The notes beneath the pieces are model-generated. The model was not told the origin of the DNA. It worked only from the letters and a program-made list of their open reading frames with translations, and did no database searches. Both the position numbers and the translations under genes were made by a program. A stretch of DNA of 64,000 bases from Escherichia phage EP335: the sequence record MG748548. One strand, written 5' to 3'. Shown in pieces: positions 9,186 through 46,350 of the stretch; the first letter of the stretch is position 1; every line of letters begins with the position of its first letter.

Positions 9186-9197
9186 TGTAATGTATAT
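9186..9197 (+). promoter_or_regulatory. promoter-like motif GTGTAATGTATA
   Basis: conserved TAATGTATA-type motif about 35-40 nt upstream of ATG 9230; recurs at 26307, 35797 (+) and 35724, 46340 (-). Confidence 0.35.
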
Positions 9198-9229
9198 TCT
9201 TTGTCTACATACAACTAGGAGGACAATCT

Positions 9230-9976
9230 ATGGCGATGCCAGACGTTCAGTACCCAATTAATACCTACGGATGGCTTAAGAAGGCTGTGTCCCTCTGGGC
9301 TGACCGTGATGACCCTGAATTTGTTAATCAGATTCCGAACTTTATTAACTTTGCAGAAAAGGAAATCTATCGTAATTTACGTATTCCTCCTCTGGAAAAA
9401 GAAGTCTATTTAGATATTAAAGATGGTGTGGCTTTTATCCCACCAGATTACTTAGAAGCTCAGTGGATGATGAGATCTAAAGATGGTTTAATCTTCCGTG
9501 TAACCTCTCTTGAAGAAGTTGATTGGCTTAAGCGTAATAACTCAGTCAACCCCACTAATTGGAATCAAGGAGAAGTTGTCTTTGCTCGTTTGGGTAGTCG
9601 GTTTATCTTCTATCCTGCAATTGAAGCAGATACTCCAGTTTACCCTGATGATGGCAGCCCTGAGATTCCAGCAGAGAATGCGGTCATTCTTAGCTATTAT
9701 GCTGACCCACCAGAGTTCTGGGAAGATTCAGACACAAGCGCTATTCTTACTATAGCCCCAGAGCTTCTACTGTATTTTGCTTTACGTCATGCTTCCTTGT
9801 TTGTTCAGGATGACAATGCAGTTCAGAAGTGGTCTGCTTTAGGTAAAGCCATTCTTGATGAAGTTGTTGAGCAGAGTAAGAAAGCAGAATACTCAGGTTC
9901 ACCTTTAGTTATTCCTAACACGATTAGCCGTCTACATAGCTCTCGTGAAGTATATGGGATTCGTCGTTTTAGATAA
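9230..9976 (+). CDS. virion structural protein (putative head-tail/tail component)
   Basis: ORF track 248 aa; ggagg RBS; position between capsid and tail fibre genes. Confidence 0.45.
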   Translation: MAMPDVQYPINTYGWLKKAVSLWADRDDPEFVNQIPNFINFAEKEIYRNLRIPPLEKEVYLDIKDGVAFIPPDYLEAQWMMRSKDGLIFRVTSLEEVDWLKRNNSVNPTNWNQGEVVFARLGSRFIFYPAIEADTPVYPDDGSPEIPAENAVILSYYADPPEFWEDSDTSAILTIAPELLLYFALRHASLFVQDDNAVQKWSALGKAILDEVVEQSKKAEYSGSPLVIPNTISRLHSSREVYGIRRFR

Positions 9977-9985
9977 GGAGAGAAT

Positions 9986-19728: not shown

Positions 19729-20739
19729 ATGGGTGCTGGAGGTTTTCGTAAGAATACTGGACGTAACAACACCACACTTCCCTACAACGTTGGGTTTCTC
19801 AACAGGGTAGAGGATACAGAAACGTATAACACTGCTGTCTATGATGAATTACAGAAAGTCAGTACAGCGACTAACCAAATGTTCCAAGCAATCGACGAGA
19901 TTCATGATGAGATTGATGTTCGTATCAAAGCTCTTAACGCAATGAATCTCCAGTTCGATGAGCTTGAGAATCGAATTACTACAGAGATTGAAACAGCTAT
20001 TGCAGACATTCAAACTCAAATGGGCAATCTATCTACGGATGATATTTGGGATAACTCAACGAATCCTCCTACTAAATTGAACGGTACGGTAGCTGGTATT
20101 AAAACTAGCATTGAAGGTAATGATTTAAAGATTCAAACTGTTCAAGGCATTGTGAATGAGCAAGGACAAGAGATTGCTTTAGTTCAAACAGAACTTACAA
20201 CTCAAGGTCAGAAGATTGTGGATGTTGATGGAAGGGTTACAACTGTACAGAACTCTCTTTCTCAATATATGAAGCTTACCGAATATGAAGCTACTTGGGG
20301 TGTGAACTCAAGTGTTAACGGTCGGTATGCAGGAGTTAAGTTAACTAACAACGGAACGAACAGTGCTTTCCAAGTAACTGCTCAGAAGTTTATTGTCGGT
20401 GATGGTAGCTCTGGTAACACCCCTTTCGTCTTTGAGAATGGTAGGGCTAGAATGGAGTTCGCTGATATAAAGAATGTCAACATCACAACTGCCATGATTG
20501 CTAATGCTCGTATCCAGTTTGCTCAGATTGATAATGTATGGATTCAAGATGGTCAGATTGCTAACCTAACAGCTAACAAGATTACTGCTGGTAGTATGTC
20601 CGGCTCTAACTGGAGACTTACAGTAGGTGGGGATTTTGTAATGGGCGGAACAGGTGGGGCACAGCTTTGGATGAATGGAAACAGAATTGATTTCTATGAT
20701 GGGAGTGGTGCTTTGAGAATTAGAATAGGGAGTTGGTGA
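19729..20739 (+). CDS. virion structural protein (putative tail/fibre-associated)
   Basis: ATG 19729 with ggagg RBS (track start 19717 is TTG); coiled-coil N-terminus. Confidence 0.45.
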   Translation: MGAGGFRKNTGRNNTTLPYNVGFLNRVEDTETYNTAVYDELQKVSTATNQMFQAIDEIHDEIDVRIKALNAMNLQFDELENRITTEIETAIADIQTQMGNLSTDDIWDNSTNPPTKLNGTVAGIKTSIEGNDLKIQTVQGIVNEQGQEIALVQTELTTQGQKIVDVDGRVTTVQNSLSQYMKLTEYEATWGVNSSVNGRYAGVKLTNNGTNSAFQVTAQKFIVGDGSSGNTPFVFENGRARMEFADIKNVNITTAMIANARIQFAQIDNVWIQDGQIANLTANKITAGSMSGSNWRLTVGGDFVMGGTGGAQLWMNGNRIDFYDGSGALRIRIGSW

Positions 20740-24630: not shown

Positions 24631-26295
24631 ATGCAACAAACTTCATATGCGTACCTCCGTAGTCGAGACCCACGCAATCAGATTTATGGTGTAAGTCAGG
24701 GAGGGGCACAAGCCTCTCCTTATGTTCCTCGTCCTGCTTACCCACAAGCAGATATGTCTGTTTATACCCGTCCTAATATGGCTCCTGCTGGATTAGCTGG
24801 ATTGGTTTCTCAGGCTAATGAAGATCAAGAAGCAATGCTTGGTCCAAACAAACAAGTTGTTCAGGGTGCTAATATCCAACCTGATATTCCTAACGAAACT
24901 CCTGTAGCAGCCTCTCAGTCAGCTTCTCCGTTTGCTAACGATGAAAGCATGGTTGCTGCTGGCCTTTCTCCAGAAACTGCTTCTCAAGAGTTCTCAGACC
25001 CTCTACCGGTAAGTGTTCCTCCTAAACCGTTGGAACCTACTGATACAGAGTTTACTCAAGACCAAGTTAAACAGGCACAACAGGTTATGTCAACCCTTTC
25101 TTCCGGCTTACCTGAAGCTGAAGGTATGGCAGGTGCTTCTCGTAGCGCTGATCAAGAACGTGTTAACAAGGATTTAATGGAAGTGGCTAAGGCTAAGAAC
25201 CCGATGGAAGAGTGGGGTAAGTTACAGAAACAACCTTTCTATCAGAACTCTAGCTTCTATACAGGTTTGATGGGTGTAGGTCTTTCTATTATGTCAGGTA
25301 AGTCTCCTATTGAAGCTTTCCAGATTGGTTCTGGTATGGCTGCACAGGATGAGACTAAGAACCAACTTGAAGCTAACCGCGAATCTCTTATTGAACAGGG
25401 TTACTCTCCAGACTCAGTTGCTGCTGCAATTGCTACTGGTGACCCTTCTGCTCTGAAGATGCGTCAGATTAGTCCTCAAGAGAAACTTGCTTTGTCTGCT
25501 ATCGAAGATGAGAGAGCTAACCGTGAATGGGACAGACGCCAACAGGTTAGTGAGCAGTCTATGAGTCGTAGGATGGATGCAACTCGCCAAGCTGCTGAAC
25601 AACGTGCACAAGAACAGTTTGCTCGTCAGAAAGAGTTGATTGGGTATCGTGATCAAGTGAAAGCTGATCGTGCTGAACAAGCTGCTAAGAGTTTTAATTT
25701 TAACCCGAAAGAAGTTCGTCTTGCTCAGAACACAGCTGAAGGTACAGTTGCTAAGCAGTGGGCAGAGAAAGGTGGTCTGTTTAACCAGTCCCATAAAGAC
25801 TTGGACTTGGCAGATCAGGCAGTTAAAGATAAAGACTACCAGACAGCTCGTTCTGCTTACATGCAGGCTATCATGAACTCCGCAAGGGCTGAAATCGGTG
25901 CTACTCGTTCTCTGACTGAAGAAGACTTACGTCACTTTGCAGAAGACCCCTCAATCTTTGTTAAGGTTGGTAATACTTGGTCTCTGAAAGGTGGGTATCG
26001 TCCTACTGATGCTGCTCTTGCTTATGCTCGTAAGCAGGCAACCGTTGGTGCTACTTCAGCAATGAAGGGTGTTAAGGATGCTAAGAAAGCAACCATTGAA
26101 GCTTACGTTGGTTCTGGTATGGATAAGAAACGTGCTACTGCACTTGTTAACCGTGCGATACCTTCTGGTGGTTTCTATGACCCGTTAGGTACTTTTGAAT
26201 CACAGGCTGAGGAAGAGGTTGGTGGTGCTGCTACTAATCCACGCCTGAATGGTGCTCTTTCAGCTTCTGAAGATACTAGCTGGTTCACTCAATAA
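24631..26295 (+). CDS. virion protein (putative internal protein)
   Basis: ATG 24631 preceded by taggag; track ORF begins further upstream in overlap with previous gene. Confidence 0.45.
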   Translation: MQQTSYAYLRSRDPRNQIYGVSQGGAQASPYVPRPAYPQADMSVYTRPNMAPAGLAGLVSQANEDQEAMLGPNKQVVQGANIQPDIPNETPVAASQSASPFANDESMVAAGLSPETASQEFSDPLPVSVPPKPLEPTDTEFTQDQVKQAQQVMSTLSSGLPEAEGMAGASRSADQERVNKDLMEVAKAKNPMEEWGKLQKQPFYQNSSFYTGLMGVGLSIMSGKSPIEAFQIGSGMAAQDETKNQLEANRESLIEQGYSPDSVAAAIATGDPSALKMRQISPQEKLALSAIEDERANREWDRRQQVSEQSMSRRMDATRQAAEQRAQEQFARQKELIGYRDQVKADRAEQAAKSFNFNPKEVRLAQNTAEGTVAKQWAEKGGLFNQSHKDLDLADQAVKDKDYQTARSAYMQAIMNSARAEIGATRSLTEEDLRHFAEDPSIFVKVGNTWSLKGGYRPTDAALAYARKQATVGATSAMKGVKDAKKATIEAYVGSGMDKKRATALVNRAIPSGGFYDPLGTFESQAEEEVGGAATNPRLNGALSASEDTSWFTQ

Positions 26296-26302
26296 GACCT
26301 AA

Positions 26303-26318
26303 GTCCTGCCTTCTATAA
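26303..26318 (+). promoter_or_regulatory. promoter-like motif CTATAATGTATATAGG
   Basis: TATAAT hexamer inside TAATGTATATA motif about 45 nt upstream of ATG 26361. Confidence 0.35.
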
Positions 26319-26360
26319 TGTATATAGGGGGTAGGACATTTTTATTTATAAGGAGACGTT

Positions 26361-29300
26361 ATGGCTAACATTAAATCTTGGGAAGAAGCATCGAAAAGCC
26401 CCAAGTATATGAACGCAACTCCTGAGCAACAAGCTCAGTTGAGAGAGCAATACAAAGCGGCAGGTGGTACAATCCCTGAAGATAAGCCAGTACAACCACA
26501 ACAAGAAGAGCGTGGCTTAGTTGGTGAGTTCGCTCAGGGCGTATCTAATGCTATCGAATCTGGTGGAGCTAATATTGCAGCTAGTACCGCTCGTGGTTTA
26601 GGTGGTCTGGTTGAAATGGGTGAGAACGTTCTCGGTTCCCAAACAAGTTATGGTAAAAGAATTCAAGATAACGCAAAACAAGTATTAGAAAAGCGTATGG
26701 CTGGTATCGAGGATGGCTTTGGTAAGACTGCTGGGCAGTATGCTGGAGTGGCTGCTGATATTGGTTTGACGGTTGCTAACCCAGCTTTGGCTGCTGGTGT
26801 TATTGCGGGACGTGAAGCAGGTCGAGCTTATGCAGACCAGACCCCAGAAGAGGGAGAAGACAAGTCAGTGTTAGATGCTGCTCTTGTTGGTGGTGCTAAC
26901 TTTGCAGCTCAGAAGATTCTTCCGGGTTTTACAGGAACAGCTGAATCTACTTTAGGTCGTATTGGTCAGAGTGCTGCTTCTAACGCCGTGGCTGGCGCTA
27001 AGGGTGGTGCTCTCGTAGGTGCTGCTGAAGCTCAGAATAAGTATGGTGATGACACTACACTTGCCAATGTACTAGAAGGTGCAATTGATGAAGGTGTTGC
27101 TGGTGCTGCTTATGGTGGAGCTATCGGTGGTGTTCATGGTGCAATTAGTCGCCCTAGTCCTCAAGTGTTTGATAAGACTCCTGAGAATGTTAAGACTGAT
27201 ATCTCCGCTGAAGATGAAGCAATTCGTAGTGCGAAGAATGCTGATGAACTCCGTGAAGCTTACTCTCAAGCCGATACTGCTAACACAGCTTCCGCTCTTA
27301 ACCTGCTAGACCAGAACGATTTCCGTATTACAGATGCTGTGGCTATGGATTCTCCTGCTGCCCAACGTATCCTTAATACTGACCAGACTCGTGCTGAGAA
27401 AGCTGCTTCCTCTCTTACAGAGCGTTCTAATATTCCGGGTCTTAATCCTCTTGTTTCTCCAAGTAAGGTCAAGGGTAAAGCTTTTGCGGATAACGAACAT
27501 AACCAGAAGCAAGCCGTAGCAATGAAAGATGCAATGGCTGACTACACTAAAGACAACACCAAGGCTCTTAATGATGTTCTTGATAACCTAGACCGAGAGT
27601 TGAACGACCTTCGTGTTCGTGGTGACTTTACTGGTAGTGCTATTGACATTAAGAATCAGACTCGTAACGATCGTGATTTCATTGATGCTTACAAGAACTT
27701 CTATACTGAAGCAAACAGATTCAAAGCTCGTGATGGCGAAGACTTTAATAACTTTGTAGAGAAAGCTACTGAACTACAGAAACTTGCTGACAATGTTTCT
27801 CCAGAGATGAAGCAAGCTATTGGCGGTTTGAAGAAACTCAAAGGTATGCCTGAAGGTTTCAACCCTATCCAAGATGCCTTTACTCTGAACAACACAGCTA
27901 AACTAATGAGTAATCAAGACCGTGGTTGGACGACACTGACAGATGATGGTTTCCGTGAAGCCTCTTCTCCAAGCTTTGTTATGAACACCCTAGGTGCTGC
28001 TAAGTATGCTCTGAACCGCTTCTCTTCAGAGAGGGCTAGATCTCAACGTGCTCGACAGCAGGACTCAAACAGTGAAGCAATTCGCTCTTTGGCTCGTGGT
28101 GATTTAGAGGTTGCTCGTGCTCGAAGAGCAGCAGCAAAAGCACGCGAAGAAATGGAAGCCGAACCGGTTGTTGATGACGTCCAATTTAAGACGCAAGCTG
28201 ATGACCAAAATCAGGCTGGTTCTGAACCTTCTTCTCCAGCTACTGTGACGGAAGATTTCTCTCCTTCTCCAGCTCCTTTAACTGCTCGTGATTTGGTTGC
28301 TCAAAGACGTGCCATCCGACAGGCGGAACAACGCCGTGCAGAGGAAGAAGCGCAAGCTGCTCAGAATGCTCCAGTTGAACCAGAAGCTCCAGCAGAAACT
28401 TTACCTACGCGTAACCCTCTTGAGGAACGTAGAGTGCAAGAAGCTGAGATGGAACAACAGCGTGCAGCAGAAGAGGCTGCTAAAGCTCCTGAGACGCCCG
28501 TAGAAGAGTCTACAGCTAAAGCTGAGCCATTACCTGCTCGTGCTCCTAAAGCTCCTAAGGAAGCTGCTCCTGAGGTTAAACCGGCTACTGGTGTAGAACG
28601 TCTTGCTGCTATGTCAACAGCTGCTCGTCAGGCTACTAAAAACCGTGCTGAACGTTTTGCTCGTTCTCTGTATACTGCTGGTGCTAAAGCTAAAGCTACT
28701 GCGGAAAACTTCTTGGCTTACAAAGGGGACCCGAAAGAGTTAATGCGTCGTATCCGTCAGGAAGACCAAGCGAACAATGCTGCTCGTCATGAAGAGATGG
28801 CTCGCAACCAATTAACTTCTCAGCAAGGTATTGCAGCTGCTAAGTCTAACCGAGTTCGTTCTGCATTCTCCGATTGGGTTAAAGAACGTGGACTACCTTC
28901 TGAAATCGCCTCTAAAGCCCTGCGTGCTGAAGAACGTGGATTGGATGGTAACGTGTCAAGTCTAGACTCTCTGAAGCGTAGAGCTGAGCGTATGTATCAG
29001 AAAGAACGTGATGATGAGTTTGATAGAATGTATCGTGAAGCTCTGGAAGAAAACAAAGCTTTCGATAAGAACGATGCACCTAAGCTGAAAGACCAGAAGG
29101 CTGAGTTCCAGTCAGAGATTGATTCTCTGCTTGAGAGCGAACCTCTTCGTCCTGCTCAGAAAGATGCAATGCGTAAGATGATGAGTGATTTTGTTGATGG
29201 GAAGTTTAAAGCGGCTGAGAAAGCTGGAAGGGAAGAAGCTTTAGAGGTTGGTCAAATGAAGGATTTGTGGGATGGGTTTATTAATACCTACAATCGTGAA

Positions 29301-30782
29301 GTTGGCATGTTCAATAAAGCTAACAAGAACTCTCAGTATGAAGCAGCAGCTAAACATCTACAGGCTCGTGAAGAACGTCTTACCTCTTTACGTAACAGAG
29401 CAGAAGCTCGTGCTCAAGCGAAAGCTACAGCAGAAGCTGAACGTCAGTCACTCGAAGCGATTGCTGGTCAGAAGACTGAGATAGAGAAGATGTTTGATGA
29501 GTTACCTAAACCTGTCCGCGAGGCTCAGGAAAGTCGTACTCTGAAACAGCTTGCAGCTCACCATGATAAGAACTCCCCTGTTCCTCCAGAACGTTTCCGT
29601 AGTATTATCGAACGTATCCATAACGCAGAGTCAGACTACCTTGATCGTAAGCGTCGTCTCACTGATGCAGAGGAAGATGCTCGTGAAGCTAAGTGGAACA
29701 AGATGTATGAACAAGCAGAGGAGATGAACCGTAAGTTCGATATAGATGCTCGTGTATCCCGTGATAAGAGCCTCAAAGAAGCTCAGGAGCGACAGAATGA
29801 TCTCATGGCAGTACAACGCCAACGTGATGACATTCATAGCCGTCTGGTGCGTTCTATCGAAGATAAGGGCATCCCTAAAGCTGATGCTGAAGCATTTGCT
29901 GGTTCTTATATGGATAACCGTTATGCTCTTCTTGAAAAACCTATGACCCCTACCGAACACCAGAATGCTCGTGCACGTATTGAGTCCGATGTAGAGAAGT
30001 TTGCTAAGAAGTATGAAAGCTTGTCTCCTATTGAGAAAGACGTGGTTAAGATTACTGGTGATGTGGAAGGTAAACTGGATGGGTTGGATGCTGAGACTGT
30101 GAAGGCAGTTGAGGAAGCTAGGAAGGTTGACTCTGATATTAAGAAACTTCAGGACGAAGAGTTGGAAATGGAGAAAATCCGTTCAGCTTTACCTGATGAT
30201 GAAAAGTCTCAGGCAAATTCCGACATTCTGGAAAGCATCAAAAAGCAAGAAGATGAGTTTGCAGGGAAGGTTGAGAAGGCATTCTTGGAAGGCAAGGACT
30301 TGAAGGAACTGGCTAGTGTTGCAGAGGTTCTGGATAGGGTTCATGGTGCTGACAAGGCTGGGAACAACCGTAGATTTGTTCGTGCTCTACAGACTGCTGC
30401 TGACAACAAGAAGAAGTATGGGGATAATCCGGTAGCTTGGTTTAGTGCTGATGATTACTCTGCTATTGCTAAACTTGGTGCTGCATCAGCGGGCGGTAAC
30501 AAATCGAGAGCGTTGGAGAAGATCTTTGGTTCTACAGCAGATCAAGCTAAGGCTAAGCTTTTGGGGAGAGATGATGTAGCGAAGATGAGACGTGTGATTG
30601 AAGCGAATCCTGAAGTCAAGATTCCTTCTTACAAGACTACTACTCGTCAAGAGTATTTACAGTTCTTGGAGAAGTATAATGATGAGGGAGTGTTGAAAGT
30701 CAAACGTGGTTCTCTGTCTGACAAATTAGAAAGGAATAAGCGTCAAGCTAAACTCCGTGTTAGAGTTCGCTCGAAAGAGTAA
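26361..30782 (+). CDS. large virion protein (putative internal/DNA-ejection protein), 1473 aa
   Basis: aaggag RBS; long A/E/K/R-rich coiled-coil content; last gene of structural block. Confidence 0.5.
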   Translation: MANIKSWEEASKSPKYMNATPEQQAQLREQYKAAGGTIPEDKPVQPQQEERGLVGEFAQGVSNAIESGGANIAASTARGLGGLVEMGENVLGSQTSYGKRIQDNAKQVLEKRMAGIEDGFGKTAGQYAGVAADIGLTVANPALAAGVIAGREAGRAYADQTPEEGEDKSVLDAALVGGANFAAQKILPGFTGTAESTLGRIGQSAASNAVAGAKGGALVGAAEAQNKYGDDTTLANVLEGAIDEGVAGAAYGGAIGGVHGAISRPSPQVFDKTPENVKTDISAEDEAIRSAKNADELREAYSQADTANTASALNLLDQNDFRITDAVAMDSPAAQRILNTDQTRAEKAASSLTERSNIPGLNPLVSPSKVKGKAFADNEHNQKQAVAMKDAMADYTKDNTKALNDVLDNLDRELNDLRVRGDFTGSAIDIKNQTRNDRDFIDAYKNFYTEANRFKARDGEDFNNFVEKATELQKLADNVSPEMKQAIGGLKKLKGMPEGFNPIQDAFTLNNTAKLMSNQDRGWTTLTDDGFREASSPSFVMNTLGAAKYALNRFSSERARSQRARQQDSNSEAIRSLARGDLEVARARRAAAKAREEMEAEPVVDDVQFKTQADDQNQAGSEPSSPATVTEDFSPSPAPLTARDLVAQRRAIRQAEQRRAEEEAQAAQNAPVEPEAPAETLPTRNPLEERRVQEAEMEQQRAAEEAAKAPETPVEESTAKAEPLPARAPKAPKEAAPEVKPATGVERLAAMSTAARQATKNRAERFARSLYTAGAKAKATAENFLAYKGDPKELMRRIRQEDQANNAARHEEMARNQLTSQQGIAAAKSNRVRSAFSDWVKERGLPSEIASKALRAEERGLDGNVSSLDSLKRRAERMYQKERDDEFDRMYREALEENKAFDKNDAPKLKDQKAEFQSEIDSLLESEPLRPAQKDAMRKMMSDFVDGKFKAAEKAGREEALEVGQMKDLWDGFINTYNREVGMFNKANKNSQYEAAAKHLQAREERLTSLRNRAEARAQAKATAEAERQSLEAIAGQKTEIEKMFDELPKPVREAQESRTLKQLAAHHDKNSPVPPERFRSIIERIHNAESDYLDRKRRLTDAEEDAREAKWNKMYEQAEEMNRKFDIDARVSRDKSLKEAQERQNDLMAVQRQRDDIHSRLVRSIEDKGIPKADAEAFAGSYMDNRYALLEKPMTPTEHQNARARIESDVEKFAKKYESLSPIEKDVVKITGDVEGKLDGLDAETVKAVEEARKVDSDIKKLQDEELEMEKIRSALPDDEKSQANSDILESIKKQEDEFAGKVEKAFLEGKDLKELASVAEVLDRVHGADKAGNNRRFVRALQTAADNKKKYGDNPVAWFSADDYSAIAKLGAASAGGNKSRALEKIFGSTADQAKAKLLGRDDVAKMRRVIEANPEVKIPSYKTTTRQEYLQFLEKYNDEGVLKVKRGSLSDKLERNKRQAKLRVRVRSKE

Positions 30783-32521: not shown

Positions 32522-33113
32522 TTACTCCCCTAAAAGTTTACGAACTTCTTTCTTGAATGTTTCATACTCTTCAGGGTATTCAAACCCACACTCTAGCATT
32601 GCGTAGTGAACAACCTTAAGCAAGTCTTGAACCTTGTTCTTATCTTTGTGACGATAAGCATACTTAATCATGTTGCATTGCTGGAAATTGAGCTGAGGGT
32701 TATTTGCATAGAACATACTTAATCATGTTGCATTGCTGGAAATTGAGCTGAGGGTTATTTGCATAGAACTCAATAGGTTGAATTTTCTTAGAGTCAGGGT
32801 CGTAGTGAGCACCACCAACCATAACATCTAGTGCTGGACTTCTTTTGCTGGTTTGTTCAGTTGTATTCTTAAAACTGACCACAGGAACAGAAGAGTAAAC
32901 TATATACTCTTCCCCTACTGGTGGTTTTACTCTTAGTCCACGCATGGCATATTCAATCTTTATGTCAGCGGAACCTGAAGCGACCTCTTCAATAGATTTT
33001 CGATAGCTGTCAATAACTGCTCTTAGCATAGAGATTGTTTTGGTCATATCTTTTACTTTCTCATTCAGTACAACAATCTCTGATTCTTTGAAATCGAACA
33101 AATTCATTTCCAC
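32522..33113 (-). pseudogene. DUF3310-like phage protein split into two ORFs by a frameshifting 55-bp tandem duplication
   Basis: ORFs 32700..33113 and 32522..32716 both encode FYANNPQLNFQQCNMIKY across the two repeat copies; joined reading gives ~178 aa with motif AHY...IQPIEF...NMIKY.YR...DLLK..HY. Confidence 0.5.
32659..32768. repeat. perfect tandem direct repeat, 2 x 55 bp
   Basis: 32659-32713 and 32714-32768 identical (catacttaatcatgttgcattgctggaaattgagctgagggttatttgcatagaa). Confidence 0.85.
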
Positions 33114-33496
33114 TCTCCAATGATTTCCATATCAAATTTATCTCCTTTCTTCGTAAGGAGTATTGCCGGTTTATCTTTACTTTTCATGTACTCAAACATA
33201 TGCAGAGAGCCTCTTGACTCTCCATCCCAGAAGACTATCGCTGAGTCAGCATACTCTCCCATGTCTACGTTTCGAAGGATACCAGCTTTCTTTCCTAAGG
33301 TTGTCCAAGAAGGGATAAACCTTTTAATACCAAGGCCGTTATGCTTAGCAATAACCTCTCCATGAGAGTCTGGCCCTTTTGCTCCCCCTGATACAACTTC
33401 AGTGAAGAGCTTAGGTATCTCTTTCGGGAGTAAATCCCACATCTGAATAAAAGAAGGCCAGTCAATAGACCGGCTTCCTGCTATAATCACTTTCAT
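33104..33496 (-). CDS. Rossmann-fold SLOG/LOG-like protein (putative nucleotide-binding)
   Basis: MKVIIAGSR..., VVSGGAKGPD..., FWDGESRGS pattern resembles SLOG/LOG-type folds; assignment from motif memory only. Confidence 0.35.
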   Translation of the reverse strand: MKVIIAGSRSIDWPSFIQMWDLLPKEIPKLFTEVVSGGAKGPDSHGEVIAKHNGLGIKRFIPSWTTLGKKAGILRNVDMGEYADSAIVFWDGESRGSLHMFEYMKSKDKPAILLTKKGDKFDMEIIGEWK

Positions 33497-33497
33497 A

Positions 33498-34139
33498 TTA
33501 AGACCCTTGGAATTCTTCCTTGTCGAAGTGCTTCTCTACCACATACTCATACAGATCTTTATACTCTGCATAACGCCGATAGAAAGTCCCGTGTGAGATG
33601 CCTAGCTCTTTCTGAATAGAATCATGAGGGATACCTAAGAAGAGCATTGAGAACATGCTTGCGAGCTTCTGTGTGTCCATTGTATCACTCAAATCTTGGA
33701 AGAAGTAGAAGATACGAGATTCCATGAAAGGGTCCCCAACTGAATCATGCTTATTAACTGCATATTCCAGAGGACCTTCTGAGTAAATGTCAGGGTTGTT
33801 AAACATATCTGCTTCTGGAATAGCATAGATACGTCGATCACCAACTGTCTGTCGATTAGAACGGATAGACCAGATGATATTCTTCACACGATAGGTCATG
33901 TGCTCAATCTCTACTTCACCTTCCAGTAGAAGCTCTTCTTGCTTGGAATAGATAAAACGCCAAACATTAAGCAACACCTCTTGAGCTACATCCTCTGCTT
34001 CATGATAGTCACGAATGTCATACATAAAGAATTTGTGAACCACTTTCCAGTTCACCTTATAGAACTCATCGAAGGTTGGGAAGTATTTGATTGGAATACC
34101 GTGAATACGATATCGAGTAGGTGTTGTTTTCTTAGCCAC
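33498..34139 (-). CDS. phage-encoded sigma factor (sigma-70/ECF-like)
   Basis: region-2-like [15 protein letters not shown] and region-4 HTH-like [16 protein letters not shown]. Confidence 0.6.
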
Positions 34140-34169
34140 AAGTTATCCTTAACTTTGTTGGTTTTAAAT

Positions 34170-34376
34170 TTATACGCTGATCAAGTAAATAGCTGTTTCT
34201 GGGTTTGGTGTGTGTTGTTGTGGTGTTCCGGGGATACGAATCCACTCATCGTTTTCTGGTTCGTAATACAACCAAGCATCTGTGAATTTGAAAGTTCTTC
34301 CAAACACTTTATTATCATGTTCCCAAATTACGTGAACATTCCTAGTATCAGGTAATACTGTTTGCGCTCTAATCAT
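34170..34376 (-). CDS. hypothetical protein
   Basis: ORF track 68 aa. Confidence 0.4.
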   Translation of the reverse strand: MIRAQTVLPDTRNVHVIWEHDNKVFGRTFKFTDAWLYYEPENDEWIRIPGTPQQHTPNPETAIYLISV

Positions 34377-34633
34377 TGGATACCTCTTTCTTTTAGAGCC
34401 TCTATTAACCCGTTGTGGTTAGCAGCACACTCTGTATATTGGTCTTGATACCACTCTAGTGTCGTTGATAGTGCAACACCTTGTGGGCCTTCTAGCATCG
34501 GTAAATCTACCCTACACTCAGCTTTTAGGTTTGCTGGTAAGGGCATTAATTGCCTGCTGTTGTCGCTCATTGAACAGCTTGACGTACTTATCACTAGCGC
34601 AAACATTATAAAAAACTGGCTTAGTCTTTTCAT
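34373..34633 (-). CDS. o-spanin candidate (Rz1-like lipoprotein), overlapping i-spanin gene in another frame
   Basis: signal peptide ending ...ALVISTSSC (Cys20), Pro-rich mature part; 5' end embedded in 3' end of upstream gene. Confidence 0.45.
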   Translation of the reverse strand: MKRLSQFFIMFALVISTSSCSMSDNSRQLMPLPANLKAECRVDLPMLEGPQGVALSTTLEWYQDQYTECAANHNGLIEALKERGIQ

Positions 34634-34868
34634 AGTGCATCTCTTTGTAAACTGTCTCAGTGTTCTTCTTCCAATCTGATAGACCGTTGAGAACTCTCAT
34701 AGCAACCTCATCAGCTGCTTTGTTTCTCTCTATCTCTAATTCTTGCTGATGTTTCTCTTTGTCCAGATTATTACTATCTGTTTGATATTCGTTAAACTTC
34801 ATACCACCAAAGAACACAAGAGCTGAAAAGACGATGAACCCTAAGTTATCACTTAACGTGTTTTGCAT
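34518..34868 (-). CDS. i-spanin candidate (Rz-like)
   Basis: ATG 34868 with ggaga RBS; N-terminal TM segment LGFIVFSALVFFGG then charged coiled-coil periplasmic domain. Confidence 0.5.
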   Translation of the reverse strand: MQNTLSDNLGFIVFSALVFFGGMKFNEYQTDSNNLDKEKHQQELEIERNKAADEVAMRVLNGLSDWKKNTETVYKEMHYEKTKPVFYNVCASDKYVKLFNERQQQAINALTSKPKS

Positions 34869-34880
34869 ATTATCTCCAAC

Positions 34881-34903
34881 GAAAAAAGCCACCCGAAGGT
34901 GGC
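34881..34903 (-). terminator. rho-independent terminator (UUCG tetraloop) on minus strand
   Basis: minus-strand gccacc-ttcg-ggtggc followed by ttttttc, immediately downstream of gene ending 34927. Confidence 0.45.
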
Positions 34904-34926
34904 TAAACTATTACAAGGAGAGATAC

Positions 34927-35667
34927 TTAGAATGGAGATTCGTCTTCTTCAAAAGTAGACTCAGGCTCACGATCGATAGTAGGGATAGAAGCAACCGGCT
35001 CTTTCTGCTCGTTCTCAGAAGCCTTAGTGACTTCACGACCAGCGAGAGGAATGTTCTTAGCGTCATTAGCTTGGGTAAGCAGGTTACGCTGGAATGGGAA
35101 GATTACCTGATAAGCAGCTACGTTATCATCTGTTTCAGCATACGGTTCGAAGAAGACCAGAGGACTGCGAGCAGCAGCAACAGCTTCACGATACTTGGTA
35201 GGAATCGGAGTAATCTGTTTGATAGAGTTCTTAACTTCACCAGCTTTGTTGGTGTAAGAGTTGATTAGAACGTTTACAGGCTGACCTAACAGCATTTCTT
35301 TAAACCAAGCCAAATCACCTTTCAGTGCTTGGATGCTAGGGTCAACCATCTTAATTAGGTTGAGAATACCAGAGTTCTTAGCTCGTGGGTTTACATCGAA
35401 GCTCTTAAACTGACATGCAGGGCGCGGGTCAAGAGCATTGCCTTCAGAGTCCTTACCGGTTGCATCAACACCAATCAGCTCAAACGCCAAGTCCATACGG
35501 AAAGCTGGGTTCTTAGGAGTAACTGCTTTAGTCTTAGGGTCAACCCAAGGGTCACGATTGTGAACACCAAGACCAACAACACGAACGATACGAGCTTCGT
35601 ACTCACCATCAGGGATTACGTCGTAGTTGGATTTACGGGAAACGGACATAGTTGGGATAGAAGACAT
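34927..35667 (-). CDS. single-stranded DNA-binding protein (putative)
   Basis: 246 aa with acidic C-terminal tail ending EEDESPF, characteristic of SSB C-termini; located in replication block. Confidence 0.45.
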   Translation of the reverse strand: MSSIPTMSVSRKSNYDVIPDGEYEARIVRVVGLGVHNRDPWVDPKTKAVTPKNPAFRMDLAFELIGVDATGKDSEGNALDPRPACQFKSFDVNPRAKNSGILNLIKMVDPSIQALKGDLAWFKEMLLGQPVNVLINSYTNKAGEVKNSIKQITPIPTKYREAVAAARSPLVFFEPYAETDDNVAAYQVIFPFQRNLLTQANDAKNIPLAGREVTKASENEQKEPVASIPTIDREPESTFEEDESPF

Positions 35668-35721
35668 ATTTTAATTTCCTTATTTAATTTAAGATTGTTG
35701 CTCACTTTGAGCGGTTATGTA

Positions 35722-35736
35722 TAGTATACATTACAC
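35722..35736 (-). promoter_or_regulatory. promoter-like motif GTGTAATGTATAC (minus orientation)
   Basis: reverse complement of 35722-35736; in 415-bp AT-rich intergenic region upstream of minus-strand gene starting 35667. Confidence 0.3.
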
Positions 35737-35981
35737 CTATACCGATAAGGGTGCTATATAGTATAAGCAGTAGTGGTAGTAGATATTGACTACTAGTAAT
35801 GTATATATTGTATAGATGATAATTCTATTGCAGGCTTGTATATTGGGCAATTCTCAGAATCCCTTGCAAGTACCGAAGGGCAGGAGACACCTGCGAGATA
35901 AAAATAGAGAATTAAGGAATCCTTGATTTAGGTTGTAGGGACTCCTAGGGACTTTGATTCTCTATTTAAAAGAAATATTAA

Positions 35982-36089
35982 TTACTTACTACCTAAATAG
36001 TTAACTAACTTACTTAAAACCTTTTCAATAAGAATTGCTAAAAGGATAATTCCTAAGAAAGCTAATAAGAGAAAGGCATAAGTTACCAT
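35982..36089 (-). CDS. unannotated 35-aa single-TM peptide
   Basis: MVTYAFLLLAFLGIILLAILIEKVLSKLVNYLGSK; ATG 36089 overlaps stop of upstream ORF; ggaatgatgga upstream. Confidence 0.3.
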   Translation of the reverse strand: MVTYAFLLLAFLGIILLAILIEKVLSKLVNYLGSK

Positions 36090-36334
36090 TCCATCATTCC
36101 TTTTAATCTAGATTCTTCTACTATTCGCTGATAGAGTAAGTTAGACTCAGCTTGATCTTTTAACATTTTACTGTATTGATCTCTGAGACTATCTTTATAA
36201 ACAACAGGTGGTTTAAATAGTGATGATACTTTGTTCTTTTCTTCTTTCATCAAAAGTCTTCCTAATCTCTTGCAGAGATACAGCTTTAAAGTTGATTTGT
36301 TCCATCGAGGTACAGAAGTATCTCCAATCATCAA
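36083..36334 (-). CDS. hypothetical protein (true start probably internal)
   Basis: track ORF overlaps 3' end of phosphoesterase gene by 120 nt in another frame. Confidence 0.25.
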   Translation of the reverse strand: MMIGDTSVPRWNKSTLKLYLCKRLGRLLMKEEKNKVSSLFKPPVVYKDSLRDQYSKMLKDQAESNLLYQRIVEESRLKGMMEW

Positions 36335-36719
36335 TCACATGATTGTGAGTATGAGCATAGATGTTGAACTTCCCTCTCATTTCATCAGCGTGAATGGGAA
36401 TGTGAGTCACCCAAAACTCTTTGTACTTGAAGTCACCTGATACAGTTCTGAACACTTTCATAATCTGTGGTAACAAATCCAGTCTGTCATGATTCCCTAA
36501 GACAAGATGCTTCTCGCCTTTAATCTCATAGATGATATCCAGTGCATATGGTTCAAACACCCAATCACCAGTGAAGAAAGTCTTATCTCGTTTAGTCACA
36601 TGGTCAAACGCTGAAAGAACTGCTTTATCGTGCTCTTCAATACTACCAAACTGTTTACGAAACTTGCAGATATTACGATGACCTAAGTGACCATCTCCTG
36701 CGAAATATACTTCAGCCAT
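36213..36719 (-). CDS. calcineurin-like metallophosphoesterase (Ser/Thr phosphatase-like)
   Basis: motifs GDGHLG, TGDWV, LGNHD, HTHNH. Confidence 0.7.
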   Translation of the reverse strand: MAEVYFAGDGHLGHRNICKFRKQFGSIEEHDKAVLSAFDHVTKRDKTFFTGDWVFEPYALDIIYEIKGEKHLVLGNHDRLDLLPQIMKVFRTVSGDFKYKEFWVTHIPIHADEMRGKFNIYAHTHNHVIDDWRYFCTSMEQINFKAVSLQEIRKTFDERRKEQSIITI

Positions 36720-36728
36720 AAAGACCTC

Positions 36729-36929
36729 TTAGATTGTGCAACCATCACACACGAAATCCCCACTCAGGGATTCTTGTAATAAACGACTTTGTTCATCAGA
36801 GACTAACTGATTAACAACTTTCTGTAACTCTAACAGTTGATCAAAATCTATATATCCCCCTTCCTCAAGAACGTTAGTTTCAATCCCCCATAAAGGTGAT
36901 GGCATGTTTCTGCTTGCATTAAAAATCAT
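36729..36929 (-). CDS. hypothetical protein
   Basis: track ORF starts at TTG 36950; internal ATG 36929 has aaggaaa RBS. Confidence 0.35.
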   Translation of the reverse strand: MIFNASRNMPSPLWGIETNVLEEGGYIDFDQLLELQKVVNQLVSDEQSRLLQESLSGDFVCDGCTI

Positions 36930-36940
36930 CGTATGTTTCC

Positions 36941-37084
36941 TTATGTCCAAGATTTAGCTTTTACTTCAACGTAGGTTTTAACTTCACCTTTCAGAACCTC
37001 TTGAGAAGCGATAGCGCTTTCTTCAGAGTGGTGTACAACAGTAATTACTTTCTTCCCAATCTTATAAGTATGAACCCAAATCAT
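36941..37084 (-). CDS. unannotated small ORF, 47 aa
   Basis: ATG 37084 overlaps TGA of upstream gene (ATGA); translated by eye MIWVHTYKIGKKVITVVHHSEE... Confidence 0.3.
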   Translation of the reverse strand: MIWVHTYKIGKKVITVVHHSEESAIASQEVLKGEVKTYVEVKAKSWT

Positions 37085-41711: not shown

Positions 41712-42026
41712 TTAACTAGAGCTTAAAGCTCCTTTGCGACCGCCAGCTGATTTTCCAGCGCGATCTCCACTTTTGCCGCCAGCTGAACGATTTCCGCTGA
41801 CTGTCTCAACACGTAAATTGCTTGACGCATTAGAGCCTCCTGATTTAATGGCTCGTTTGTGTCCGACATCTTTACCTTTGAGTGCAGATTTTCCAACGCG
41901 TTTTTCAACGATGCGACGTGCACGGTGGCGCTGAGCATCTCCGCTCTTACTTCCAATTCCCGTTTCACCTCTTGCGATGGCTGTACGTCTTTCTTGTGCA
42001 TAATCTCTTTTAGCCTTATCAGTCAT
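41712..42026 (-). CDS. small basic low-complexity protein (G/K/R/S-rich)
   Basis: aaggag RBS 7 nt upstream of ATG 42026 supports this frame over overlapping ORF 41723..42001. Confidence 0.5.
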   Translation of the reverse strand: MTDKAKRDYAQERRTAIARGETGIGSKSGDAQRHRARRIVEKRVGKSALKGKDVGHKRAIKSGGSNASSNLRVETVSGNRSAGGKSGDRAGKSAGGRKGALSSS

Positions 42027-42084
42027 TTACAACTCCTTAATATATCAGTGTACACTAAGGAGTATACATTATGAGAGGGTAGCT

Positions 42085-42825
42085 TTAGTTGCCATCCTTC
42101 TCCATAGCTTTAACGATTGCTTTACAGAAACCAGAACGAACAATATCATCCGAGTCACCATCAACAATATCAGCGAACTCATACAGATCGTGCTCGTCAA
42201 TGAACTCGGTAGCCCAAGTAAGACCACTCTCTCGACCTTTCATATCGTGCTGGTTAGTGTCACCCATGCAGAACAGCTGGGATGTTTCACCCAAGCGAGT
42301 CATAATAGAGAATGCTTCATCTTTGGTTGTATTCTGGAACTCATCCACAATAACAATGGCATCATTGAAAGAGCGACCACGGAGATATTCCAGAGGTACG
42401 AACTCAATATTACCGTTACCAAGCTGGCATTCATAGAAACCTTTACCATACCGCTGAGTGATTACATCAACAATAGGCATTAGGTACGGTTCGAACTTAT
42501 CACGAAGCCCACCCGGAAGTAGTCCAAGAGAGTTACCCATGCCAACAGAAGGTCGGCTAATGATAATCTTTTGAATCTTACCGCTCTTCAGTGCATCAAT
42601 GACAGTAGAGGTGATGACGAACGTCTTACCACAGCCCGCAGGAGCGTCTGTGAACACCACTTGTTTAGTCTTGATAGCATTGAGCAGCTCAGATTGAAAC
42701 TGATTCTGAGGGACCACTGGCTTCGCTAAAACAACCTCTTCATATTCACGCTTACCCTTCTTGGTGACTAAGGCTTCACGACGTAAATCTTTACGAGACT
42801 CTCTACGGGACTGTCTACGGCTCAT
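42085..42825 (-). CDS. phoH: PhoH-like ATPase
   Basis: P-loop DAPAGCGKTF, motifs YLRGRSFNDAIVIVDEFQN and GDTNQHD. Confidence 0.8.
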   Translation of the reverse strand: MSRRQSRRESRKDLRREALVTKKGKREYEEVVLAKPVVPQNQFQSELLNAIKTKQVVFTDAPAGCGKTFVITSTVIDALKSGKIQKIIISRPSVGMGNSLGLLPGGLRDKFEPYLMPIVDVITQRYGKGFYECQLGNGNIEFVPLEYLRGRSFNDAIVIVDEFQNTTKDEAFSIMTRLGETSQLFCMGDTNQHDMKGRESGLTWATEFIDEHDLYEFADIVDGDSDDIVRSGFCKAIVKAMEKDGN

Positions 42826-45360: not shown

Positions 45361-45412
45361 TTCCTTATAAATAAGTTCGCCCTACCTCGGATTAGGAGAC
45401 AGGGCGGAGGTT

Positions 45413-46000
45413 TTAGTATGAGACGTCACTAGAGTGTGACATGTTACTTTTAACGAAGTAGCAATACTTGCCTAACCCTTCGTTGATTTCTTGGAGCATG
45501 CTCTGGTCAACTGGATACTCGCTCAAACATCCATCGAACTCATCCATTTTGTCAATCATGCACATTAAAGACATGCACATATCAGAGAGCATACCATCCA
45601 TATCTAGGTCTGCATTTCCTTCAGAGAACCAAGAGTGTGATAGGTAGTTAGAAGCAGTTGCATCCACCTTAATACAGTGGAAACGCATACGTTCAGCTAT
45701 CCGATCACCTGTCTCACGAGCATAATCTTCAAGCTCATCAAACATTCCATGAACACCCTGAAATCCTGCACCAGATACGTTCCAGTGATAATTCTTAGCT
45801 TTGATATGCAAGAGTTCTAAATTAGCTTGAATACCGCATAGAATGTGTTCTAGGCTGTTTCCACTAATCATCCCTTGCATACGCTCTAAACGGGAGATAG
45901 AAGAGTCTGTTTCACGTAATACATCACGGAAAGAAGTCTCTTTTGTTAGAGTTGGTAGGTCGAAAACATTGTGATTAGGCATTAGGATTCTCTCCATCAA
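45413..46000 (-). CDS. dps: Dps/ferritin-like protein
   Basis: Dps signature LHIKAKNYHWNVSGAGFQGVHGMFDELEDYARETGDRIAERM. Confidence 0.7.
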   Translation of the reverse strand: MMERILMPNHNVFDLPTLTKETSFRDVLRETDSSISRLERMQGMISGNSLEHILCGIQANLELLHIKAKNYHWNVSGAGFQGVHGMFDELEDYARETGDRIAERMRFHCIKVDATASNYLSHSWFSEGNADLDMDGMLSDMCMSLMCMIDKMDEFDGCLSEYPVDQSMLQEINEGLGKYCYFVKSNMSHSSDVSY

Positions 46001-46304
46001 GTTCTACTGAGTTCGCAACATTGCGTGTAATGTTATCCATTACCTGTTGGGTGATAACGATGCAGTTCTGTGGGTCAACCGACTTAGAACGTCCCATCTC
46101 AGGGTCATACACTTTAACGCGCTTTGCTGTAGAACCAGTTACCTGTAACACCTTGAGAAGATAACCCTGATTCCCGATAGACCATGCAACAACATCACGA
46201 TTCTTGATGAATCGACCAAGCATATCACGATGATAGAACTGCTGCATAACCTTTGATTTATTAATCTCTTCGGCTGGCGGAGCCACTTTACTCAAATCTA
46301 ACAT
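45975..46304 (-). CDS. hypothetical protein
   Basis: ORF track 109 aa; overlaps Dps start. Confidence 0.35.
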   Translation of the reverse strand: MLDLSKVAPPAEEINKSKVMQQFYHRDMLGRFIKNRDVVAWSIGNQGYLLKVLQVTGSTAKRVKVYDPEMGRSKSVDPQNCIVITQQVMDNITRNVANSVELDGENPNA

Positions 46305-46335
46305 TTCACTCTCTCCTGTTCAATACAATATTCTT

Positions 46336-46350
46336 ATACTGTATATACAT
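46336..46350 (-). promoter_or_regulatory. promoter-like motif AATGTATATACAG (minus orientation)
   Basis: reverse complement of 46336-46350; about 35-45 nt upstream of minus-strand gene start 46304. Confidence 0.3.

Follow-up and report, generated by a model that had tools for sequence, protein, structure and literature searches.

In the coliphage phiEco32, the promoters of the phage sigma factor gp36 have been defined experimentally and share the consensus tAATGTAtA (Pavlova 2012, as cited in PMC8948821, PMC4281155 and PMC12276001). As these citing papers present the work, one consensus describes six mapped promoters (P6, P13, P26, P40, P58 and P68), with AATGTA centred at −11.5 and transcription starting 6–8 nt downstream. 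A second phiEco32 protein, gp79, activates the holoenzyme containing gp36 but inhibits the one containing sigma70, and it shuts off sigma70 transcription. Transcription activated by gp79 is known for P26 and P68, and that from P26 is dependent on gp36 and gp79 in vitro. In the open complex formed on P68, solved by cryo-EM in 2025 (PDB 9m7y; Xu et al. 2025), the N-terminal domain of gp36 reads A-14 A-13 T-12 G-11, and its C-terminal domain contacts G-37 and A-34.

The late promoters of Salmonella phage 7-11 are recognized by the sigma factor gp47 and have the consensus GTAAtg-(16)-aCTA (PMC8948821). As in the gp36 system, a phage sigma directs the host core enzyme, and the promoters, similarly placed in the genome, precede structural genes and some of those on the replication side. 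However, the phage 7-11 consensus is a different and explicitly bipartite one, its sigma factor is only ~15% identical to gp36, and the phage has neither a gp79 homologue nor a middle promoter class (PMC8948821).

The recurrent motif and the phage sigma factor

We analysed a 64,000-nt stretch of Escherichia phage EP335 (record MG748548), referred to here as the window. It belongs to a phiEco32-like coliphage (Kuravirus) that is 96.4% identical to KBNP1711 over positions 33000–37000, and Bas89 is 100% identical to it over 35500–36300. The genome of phiEco32 is only ~81% identical to the window where the two can be aligned, and all seven motif sites have a counterpart in it at the same relative position.

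Exact copies of the 9-mer TAATGTATA are found five times in the window (9188+, 26316+, 35725−, 35797+ and 42063−) against 0.58 expected for the window-wide count, and none of 100 shuffled sequences contained at least five. All five copies are intergenic, in a window of which intergenic DNA makes up ~5.6% (rough P ~5×10−7). The motif had been described beforehand as recurrent and intergenic; both descriptions hold. The five motif strings quoted in the original prediction are all present, with the coordinates exact for the first + strand copy (9185–9199) and displaced by up to 10 nt for the others, which we place at 26313–26328 (rather than 26303–26318), 35794–35809, 35721–35736 and 46339–46351.

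Searching with AATGTATA adds two copies, 46344− and 48818−. When one mismatch is allowed, 19 copies are found against 16.6 expected, which is no enrichment; the signal therefore resides in the near-perfect copies, and a loose consensus search is uninformative. Near-matches at 20532, 22960, 12805 and 48818 lie within coding sequence or extend across it. The bipartite pattern given below does not recover the first three, and the copy at 20532 is not kept in phiEco32. The fourth, AAATGTATA at 48818..48826 on the − strand, overlaps the stop/start junction of the open reading frames 48825..49373 and 47544..48824. It lacks T-38 and A-34, has no gene start at a promoter-like distance, and reads AAATGTAAA at the matching position in phiEco32; it is probably not a promoter.

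The window encodes a gp36 homologue at 33498..34139 on the − strand, which matches PDB 9m7y_F with E=4.5e-121; with Pfam Sigma70_r2 it gives a weak match only, below threshold. The residues by which gp36 contacts DNA are all kept (E79, H80, Y83, R84, W90, S91, S94 and N95), and the equivalents of Y186 and R187, the Y and R of FYRRY, are identical. A gp79 homologue is encoded at 52270..52512, also on the − strand (PDB 9m7y_G / 9m7z, E=4.2e-36).

The window thus resembles phiEco32 in its motif consensus, in the positions of the motifs relative to orthologous genes, in a sigma factor with identical DNA-contact residues, and in the presence of gp79. It also shows the same division between late promoters, on the + strand with the structural genes, and middle promoters on the − strand. 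The TAATGTATA motif is the published phiEco32-type gp36 promoter element and is not new. In the window it very probably serves as the promoter element for the sigma factor that the phage itself encodes, namely the gp36 homologue (33498..34139). The original prediction had suggested a −10-type element read by this protein, in agreement with the literature on tAATGTAtA and gp36; this reading is supported but already known, since the phiEco32 promoters have been mapped, an open complex has been solved by cryo-EM, and the same six promoters have been predicted for KBNP1711 (Table S3 of PMC8948821). Little is at stake in the motif itself, the class having also been reconstituted in vitro in phiEco32.

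It is highly improbable that these motifs are instead host sigma70 promoters, with an AT-rich, −10-like TATA core and weak −35 boxes. A consensus scan does reveal weak 9-of-12 sigma70-like matches overlapping two of the sites (35780–35809, + strand, and 42095–42068, − strand), and according to the SU10 paper sigma70 promoters may also reach some middle genes. However, sigma70-like matches are no commoner in the window than in shuffled sequence, and the letters that are conserved are AATGTA, not TATAAT. In phiEco32, moreover, it is the gp36 holoenzyme that transcribes from the same sequences, and sigma70 transcription is turned off by gp79.

Late promoters of phage T4 provide another point of comparison for recognition by the phage sigma factor. 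There gp55 reads TATAAATA at −10, with no −35 element, and requires gp33 and the sliding clamp gp45. In both systems a divergent sigma of the phage, bound to the host core enzyme, reads a short, highly conserved −10-type element, but the gp36-type sigma touches the −35 region with a sigma4-like domain of its own, and the small activator gp79 takes the place of sigma appropriation.

If the window follows the scheme drawn from the phiEco32 literature, host sigma70 RNA polymerase would transcribe the early genes, and gp36 and gp79 would be made as middle-gene products. The gp79 homologue would displace sigma70 region 4 from the host core and stabilize gp36 there. AATGTA at −14 to −9 would then be read by the gp36 N-terminal domain, with melting from −11, while the C-terminal domain would touch the −35 region at G-37 and A-34, and transcription would start ~7 nt past the 9-mer. 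By orthology, three late promoters on the + strand (1092, 9188 and 26316) would stand ahead of the packaging and structural modules, and three middle promoters on the − strand (35725, 42063 and 46344) would drive units of one or two genes.

Predicted promoter map and −35 region

Start sites in the window are predictions extrapolated from phiEco32. The late P6 homologue occupies 1069..1107 on the + strand (phiEco32 counterpart 1677+), with T(-38)GGGA, TAATGTAAG at 1092–1100, a predicted +1 at 1107 and the gene 1113..1583 downstream. Its 9-mer, which begins at 1092 and lies 12 nt before that gene, is degenerate and differs from the TAATGTAGA of phiEco32, yet fits the bipartite pattern. The predicted start would give a leader of only 6 nt, cutting into the Shine-Dalgarno sequence, and a terminator-like hairpin (1058–1076) is found just upstream. 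The late P13 homologue, at 9165..9203 on the + strand (phiEco32 9101+), carries TAAGACCTA at −38 to −30 and TAATGTATA at 9188–9196. Its predicted +1 at 9203 leaves a 27-nt leader to gene 9230..9976, which encodes a virion structural protein, and a terminator-like hairpin lies upstream at 9136–9155. The late P26 homologue, at 26293..26331 on the + strand (phiEco32 26014+), has the same TAAGACCTA at −38 to −30, with TAATGTATA at 26316–26324 and a predicted +1 at 26331, and precedes gene 26361..30782. Here the 9-mer sits in the loop of a 15-bp hairpin (26303–26337) that is followed by ATTTTTATTT.

The three middle promoters are on the − strand. The P40 homologue at 35718..35756 (phiEco32 36632−) has TAGCA at −38 to −34, TAATGTATA at 35733–35725 and a predicted +1 at 35718, with a 51-nt leader to gene 34927..35667; a terminator at 34904–34887 comes directly after this gene, so the P40 unit consists of one gene. 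The P58 homologue at 42056..42094 (phiEco32 42937−) has TGGCA at −38 to −34, TAATGTATA at 42071–42063 and a predicted +1 at 42056. Its leader to gene 41712..42026 measures 30 nt, the 9-mer being 36 nt before the gene start, and a terminator (41709–41684) directly follows the gene. The P68 homologue at 46337..46375 (phiEco32 46862−) combines TGGTAGTAGATA at −38 to −27 with AAATGTATA at 46352–46344 and a predicted +1 at 46337. Downstream are the genes 45975..46304 and 45413..46000, the latter for a Dps-like DNA-binding protein, and a terminator at 45406–45378.

Terminator-like hairpins flank the transcription units, as this promoter map would predict. The AATGTA core is intact at all seven sites, namely the five exact 9-mers, AAATGTATA at 46344− and TAATGTAAG at 1092+. 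Four copies had earlier been placed roughly 35–65 nt upstream of gene starts. From the first base of the 9-mer, the start codons are 42, 45, 66 and 48 nt away, and the four sites occupy the orthologous positions of phiEco32 P13, P26, P40 and P68. The homologues of P58 (42063−, a perfect copy) and P6 (1092+, degenerate) had been missed. For annotation, the outcome is a seven-site map of phage-sigma promoters with predicted starts, in which middle units are only one to two genes long.

In the −35 region, T-38 and A-34 are present at all 14 sites (seven of seven in the window and seven of seven in phiEco32), and G-37 at only four of the seven window sites, with A in late promoters and in P40. The bipartite pattern TRRNA-N18-WAATGTA has eight matches in the window against 0.45 expected, seven of them being the predicted promoters, although this enrichment is partly circular, the T-38/A-34 rule having been drawn from these very sites. 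The TAAGACCTA block is specific to late promoters. The window contains the 12-mer TGGTAGTAGATA at two places only, P68 and the seventh site, each time 23 nt upstream of the 9-mer. In the accessible literature on these promoters, we found no statement on the invariant T-38 and A-34, the late TAAGACCTA block or the TGGTAGTAGATA block common to P68 and the seventh site.

A promoter-like site without a gene

The seventh site lies at 35774..35812 on the + strand, back to back with P40. It has TGGTAGTAGATA at −38 to −27, TAATGTATA at 35797–35805 and a predicted +1 at 35812. The published six-promoter lists for phiEco32 do not include this perfect copy between genes 40 and 41, although phiEco32 itself carries it, at 36704 on the + strand. 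In 23 distinct relatives the −35 block, the −10 box and their spacing are invariant, while the sequence of the spacer varies.

No + strand gene lies downstream of 35797, as the original prediction had observed, and no record annotates any gene in 35668–35981. A greedy map of open reading frames places a 37-aa frame over 35797, which we regard as spurious, as it is unannotated in all records examined. A 36-aa frame at 35816..35926 (+ strand) was rejected as coding because it has no start codon in phiEco32 and SU7. More generally, relatives lack the start codon of the + strand 36-aa and 21-aa frames or interrupt them with a stop, and an alternative middle module of the region, type B below, eliminates both.

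The 35797 copy is most likely a working gp36 promoter of the P68, or middle, type, as judged from its sequence and conservation. It would transcribe ~155 nt of conserved non-coding sequence, giving either a small structured RNA or a transcript that primes or activates an origin. The original prediction had proposed a promoter for a non-coding RNA or an origin region. The site is indeed conserved and looks like a complete promoter, and its function is a candidate one. The chances appear evenly balanced that Kuravirus and Suseptimavirus carry an undescribed seventh gp36 promoter that would fire rightward, against all neighbouring genes, into ~155 nt of near-invariant non-coding DNA and yield either a new small RNA or a transcript that primes or activates a replication origin beside an AT-rich unwinding stretch. 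This site carries more weight than the motif itself, these phages being candidates for therapy that also serve as a model of sigma replacement. If the proposal is true, a seventh transcription unit would bear on either the non-coding RNAs or the replication origin of these phages.

The conserved non-coding element

The candidate ~155-nt transcript corresponds to a conserved element at 35812..35967 on the + strand, downstream of the seventh site. It is built from a hairpin on the 5′ side, at the predicted +1, a variable middle module that is of type A in the window, a GCAGG/CCTGC hairpin and a long hairpin on the 3′ side. The 3′ half of the element has a mean pairwise identity of 0.96, as compared with 0.87 in the gene 40 coding sequence and 0.59 just downstream. 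The middle module is exchanged between fixed flanks, types A and B being non-homologous. Changes on both sides of a predicted pair affect two of 43 pairs, both in the 6-bp 5′ hairpin (UA/GC, and CG/AU/UA), and the G-U variants of this hairpin can pair on the + strand only. The other six helices are uninformative, as they are invariant or vary on one side only, and folding z-scores for the element are modest (−1.8 to −2.7).

It is possible, though somewhat short of an even chance, that the promoter drives a stand-alone small RNA of ~155 nt acting in trans on either host or phage, for instance through protein sequestration or base pairing. Such an RNA would fit a complete and conserved promoter that leads into an element with no conserved open reading frame, better conserved than the adjacent coding sequence and sharply bounded on its right-hand side. 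Covariation in the 5′-terminal hairpin, with G-U variants that suit the + strand only, points in the same direction, and the exchange of type A and type B modules resembles the variable domains of RNAs. Against an RNA of this kind, most helices are invariant, so that its structure remains a prediction, and the + strand terminator is poor, with no good U-tract after the 3′ hairpin. No complementarity above chance to a target of the element RNA was found within the window.

The element also matches no described RNA family: Rfam 15 gave no match at gathering thresholds anywhere in the window. At E<=10, a search of 35700–36100 returned two weak matches only, with E values of 0.076 and 0.23 that fall far short of the gathering threshold; both lie at 36003–36069 and thus outside the element. 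ARAGORN found no tRNA or tmRNA. Pattern scans of IMG/VR and metagenomes recovered kuravirus-like contigs only, plus unrelated GC-rich chance matches, and a scan of GTDB genomes yielded one chance match in an archaeal MAG. The element was not matched in E. coli genomes, and it is absent from the Grimontviridae relatives, the distant contig L011 and the relatives of the phage 7-11 group that were examined. In these scans there was accordingly no homologue outside Kuravirus and Suseptimavirus, a further point against the small RNA. A literature search on non-coding RNAs, replication origins or transcriptomes in this phage group turned up nothing relevant.

On the opposite strand, the long hairpin at 35902–35967 is followed by TTTTTAT, so that it could plausibly work as an intrinsic terminator a short way upstream of P40. 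The conserved block might then serve chiefly as a − strand terminator or insulator, stopping leftward transcription ahead of P40, with the + strand 9-mer a by-product or a roadblock without a product of its own, and other gp36 promoters also have terminators ahead of them. We consider this unlikely, as it leaves unexplained the near-invariant hairpin interior, the conservation of the 90 nt that separate the terminator from P40, and the conserved + strand −35 and −10 boxes at fixed spacing; in addition, neither strand gives a match here in a simple terminator scan.

The primary replication origin of phage T7 consists of the promoters phi1.1A/B and an AT-rich region, and T4 oriF and oriG each pair a middle promoter with an unwinding element. 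Similarly, the seventh site is a putative phage-specific promoter without a gene to express, and it is aimed at an AT-rich stretch. The 80 nt directly 3′ of the element are 74–84% AT in every relative, including those whose sequences there are unrelated; the window as a whole averages 57%. The difference from T7 and T4 is the 155-nt conserved, partly structured block that lies between promoter and AT-rich stretch, and the origin here is a candidate only.

It is rather doubtful that a replication origin is made up of the promoter and the conserved block together, with a gp36-dependent rightward transcript that would prime or open the adjacent AT-rich DNA. The literature on this phage group yielded no mapped origin, and AT-richness could stem from the small membrane-peptide gene and the gene ends located there. 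GC skew is uninformative on this point because it tracks the switch in gene orientation near 31 kb. Covariation that tolerates G-U pairs argues for selection on the 5′ hairpin at the RNA rather than the DNA level. For gp40, considered as a single-stranded DNA-binding protein, no support emerged: it belongs to a PHROGs family of unknown function, has no sequence match in the PDB, and gives an unusable AlphaFold single-sequence model (pLDDT 36). In favour of an origin, the phage has a T7-like replication set of primase/helicase and DNA polymerase (phiEco32 annotation), and the −35 block common to P68 suggests middle timing, when replication begins. Paired direct repeats would also be consistent with an origin: two copies of AGGGACT lie one helical turn apart, and in some relatives both have changed together to AGGACT.

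Motif copies and the sigma factor that reads them

The window, together with KBNP1711 and Bas89, belongs to the phiEco32-like podoviruses (Gordonclarkvirinae, Kuravirus). Over 33000-37000, identity is 96.4% with Escherichia phage KBNP1711 and 97.9% with Bas89, the latter rising to 100% across 35500-36300, and phiEco32 aligns over ~43 kb of the window at ~81% identity.

The 9-mer TAATGTATA occurs exactly five times, at 9188(+), 26316(+), 35725(-), 35797(+) and 42063(-), compared with an expected mean of 0.58; none of 100 dinucleotide-preserving shuffles reaches five. All five copies are in non-coding DNA, which a simple ORF map puts at ~5.6% of the window; in that map 35797 fell within a spurious 37-aa ORF. 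The 8-mer AATGTATA adds two sites, 46344(-) and 48818(-). When one mismatch is allowed in the 9-mer, the enrichment vanishes (19 matches versus 16.6 expected), and therefore the signal resides in the near-perfect copies. This window-wide search, with its check of coding regions, bears out the original observation of a recurrent intergenic motif. All five strings quoted there are present, albeit with positions off by 0-10 nt, and its sites are real, but 42063(-) and 1092(+) had been missed.

The motif is the known promoter element of the phiEco32 sigma factor gp36, in agreement with the earlier proposal that a phage sigma factor reads it. As Pavlova et al. (2012) are reported in PMC8948821 and PMC4281155, one consensus, tAATGTAtA, is common to all the phiEco32 gp36 promoters and transcription starts 6-8 bp downstream of it; three of the promoters precede late genes and three middle genes. 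Supplementary Table S3 of PMC8948821 gives TAATGTAgA for P6, TAATGTATA for P13, P26, P40 and P58, and aAATGTATA for P68, and predicts the equivalent six promoters for KBNP1711 and four other relatives. The ORF originally named as the sigma gene (33498..34139, -) matches gp36 (9m7y chain F, E=4.5e-121), and all listed DNA-contact residues are identical. A homologue of the co-activator gp79 is encoded at 52270..52512(-) (9m7y chain G, E=4.2e-36).

The open complex was solved on P68 by cryo-EM in 2025 (PMC12276001, PDB 9m7y). The N-terminal domain of gp36 reads A-14, A-13, T-12 and G-11 via N95, S91, S94, E79 and H80, W90 and Y83 are stacked at the fork, and R187 and Y186 of the C-terminal domain touch G-37 and A-34 (PMC12276001). 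In the same study, gp79 is shown to displace region 4 of sigma70 from the core enzyme and to stabilise the C-terminal domain of gp36, and it activates P26 and P68 three- to four-fold. By orthology with phiEco32, where this was demonstrated, the two proteins would bring the host's core RNA polymerase to promoters of the AATGTA type, turning on the middle units before the late operons for packaging, head and tail. The motif finding as first written is correct and already known, useful as annotation and of low value as discovery.

Promoter architecture and transcription units

Scanned in full, the phiEco32 genome yields a matching set of intergenic sites, with order and orientation preserved. Homologous pairs (phiEco32/window) are P6 at 1677(+)/1092(+), P13 at 9101(+)/9188(+), P26 at 26014(+)/26316(+), P40 at 36632(-)/35725(-), P58 at 42937(-)/42063(-) and P68 at 46862(-)/46344(-), plus 36704(+)/35797(+), which is not listed under any published name. 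At the sequence level, the six gene-proximal sites agree with the phiEco32 gp36 promoter class in their AATGTA core and orthologous positions. The site at 42063(-) is a perfect 9-mer 36 nt before gene 41712..42026, and that at 1092(+) is a degenerate copy, TAATGTAAG, 12 nt before gene 1113..1583. At the usual spacing, P6 transcripts would start at ~1107, leaving a 6-nt leader and cutting through the AAGGAG ribosome-binding site, and thus may be translated as near-leaderless mRNA.

With numbering taken from the structure (9-mer at -15 to -7, +1 seven nt after it), T-38 and A-34 are present at 14/14 sites, seven in each phage, and we infer that both form part of recognition. G-37, which gp36 touches in the P68 open complex, is present at only four of the seven window sites. 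The pattern TRRNA-N18-WAATGTA has eight window matches against 0.45 expected, seven of them at the sites paired above; because it was derived from those sites, this enrichment is descriptive and no independent test. The 8-mer copy at 48818(-) was taken as chance: it lacks the T-38/A-34 signature, lies across a stop/start junction and shows no conservation in phiEco32. The eighth match to the full bipartite pattern, TGGAA-N18-TTAATGTA at 23297-23326(+), is intragenic, within the homologue of gene 23. Its key letters recur in phiEco32 at 22978-23066, which would fit either an internal late promoter or mere conservation of the coding sequence.

The upstream block appears to come in two flavours. 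One, TAAGACCTA (9165-9173 and 26293-26301, +), is common to the strong late promoters P13 and P26, and the other, TGGTAGTAGATA (35774-35785, + and 46364-46375, -), to P68 and the 35797(+) site; each has only two window occurrences, and the block begins 23 nt before the 9-mer at all four sites. The two kinds, of which we found no mention in the accessible literature, may constitute a timing or activator code within the gp36 regulon.

The P6 and P13 homologues are each closely preceded by a terminator-like hairpin (1058-1076 and 9136-9155). Terminators directly 3' of genes 40 (34904-34887), 58 (41709-41684) and 67 (45406-45378) indicate that each middle promoter serves just one or two genes. At P26, the loop of a 15-bp hairpin of terminator type (26303-26337, +), followed by the T-run ATTTTTATTT, contains the 9-mer, and the hairpin sequence is identical in phiEco32. 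Transcripts from gene 25 could terminate here, while those started at P26 (+1 ~26331) are predicted to begin within the 3' arm and to be unable to form the hairpin.

The gene 40 homologue (34927-35667, -) is a one-gene unit between P40 and its terminator. Its product has an acidic C-terminal tail (...EEDESPF) that recalls single-stranded DNA-binding proteins, a label that one GenBank record carries on a feature within this interval; PHROGs lists the family's function as unknown, and the product has no match among PDB sequences. At the window start, two similar blocks at 150-251(+), GGCCTTTACATGAGGTCCCCTTTATAT and GGCCTTAATATGAGCGCCCCTTTATGT, with a third partial copy at ~459-482, precede the first small ORFs and could represent hairpins or early sigma70 promoters.

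A putative orphan promoter back to back with P40

Only the + strand copy at 35797, here called the orphan, goes beyond what the accessible promoter papers cover. It stands back to back with P40, their T-38 positions 18 bp apart, and combines a perfect 9-mer with the P68 -35 block at P68 spacing. Among 23 distinct sequences, drawn from phages of Kuravirus and Suseptimavirus and from metagenomic contigs, the GGTAGTA block core, the AAT/TATA letters of the 9-mer and the box-to-box spacing are invariant, and the sequence of the 11-nt spacer is free to vary. Substitutions are confined to single changes at one block position and in the 9-mer of two metagenomic contigs. A functional bipartite promoter would be expected to look like this.

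The orphan shares the sequence features of the gp36 class but has no downstream gene. As had been remarked at the outset, no + strand gene follows it, and no related record places any gene in the interval separating the gene 40 homologue from that of gene 41. A 36-aa ORF from 35816 was rejected as a candidate, its ATG being replaced by CTG or CTA in phiEco32 and SU7. On balance, we favor a functional promoter, which would fire rightward at middle times. It could give these phages a seventh transcription unit, yielding a noncoding RNA or an origin transcript.

The conserved non-coding element at 35812-35967

Downstream of the orphan lies an element of ~155 nt (35812-35967) that is more conserved than adjacent coding sequence, with mean pairwise identity of 0.96 in its 3' half and 0.87 in gene 40; just past its right edge the value is 0.59. 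In relatives lacking gene 41, BLAST matches end at window 35970-35989, consistent with the right boundary of the element.

The orphan product may be a small structured RNA, a tentative reading that we consider less likely than not. For 13 sequences sharing the window's form of the second module (type A), RNAalifold predicts a hairpin from the predicted +1, an irregular hairpin, a GCAGG/CCTGC hairpin and a long 3' hairpin. Apart from one A-to-G change in the 3' hairpin, which also yields G-U, only the first hairpin varies, through UA/GC and CG/AU/UA exchanges and GC-to-GU changes; the remaining helices are invariant and therefore speak neither for nor against the fold. Read on the - strand, each of these G-U pairs would become an A-C mismatch. 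Folding z-scores are modest (-1.8 to -2.7). Rfam and tRNA scans of the element gave no match, no counterpart was found in E. coli genomes, GTDB genomes or more distant Grimontviridae relatives, and no significant complementarity occurs elsewhere in the window.

It is rather doubtful that the element serves the - strand only, as a terminator or insulator. The long hairpin has TTTTTAT after it on that strand and so may also terminate leftward transcription ahead of P40, and the + strand U-tract is poor. However, this reading leaves unexplained both the conserved + strand promoter boxes and the invariant hairpin interior.

Somewhat less doubtful, though still unlikely, is a transcript from the orphan that would prime or open a replication origin in the flanking AT-rich DNA, in the manner of the promoter-dependent origins of T7 (primary origin) and T4 (oriF/oriG). 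AT content over the 80 nt right of the element is 74-84% in all relatives, those with unrelated sequence included, compared with a window mean of 57%.

The second module of the element is 45 nt long in the window (35830-35875), phiEco32 and SU7. Comparison with loci L012, L018, L043, L009 and L026-L035 reveals an unrelated module of ~71 nt (26 nt longer; type B) between unchanged flanks in ECBP2, MN05, ES17 and several metagenomic contigs. The swap is wholesale and does not follow genus boundaries, which suggests recombination.

Directly to the right of the element, the gene 41 homologue (35982-36089, -) encodes a 35-aa hydrophobic peptide (PHROG 24970); it is absent in ECBP2, Paul, EK010, Bas86 and Bas87, where a phosphoesterase gene adjoins the element. 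Inside the 3' hairpin, two direct AGGGACT repeats lie 10 nt apart (35931-35950, +), and both become AGGACT together in Paul, EK010, XT18, Bas87 and ECBP2, the kind of concerted change expected for paired protein-binding sites or a shared pairing partner.
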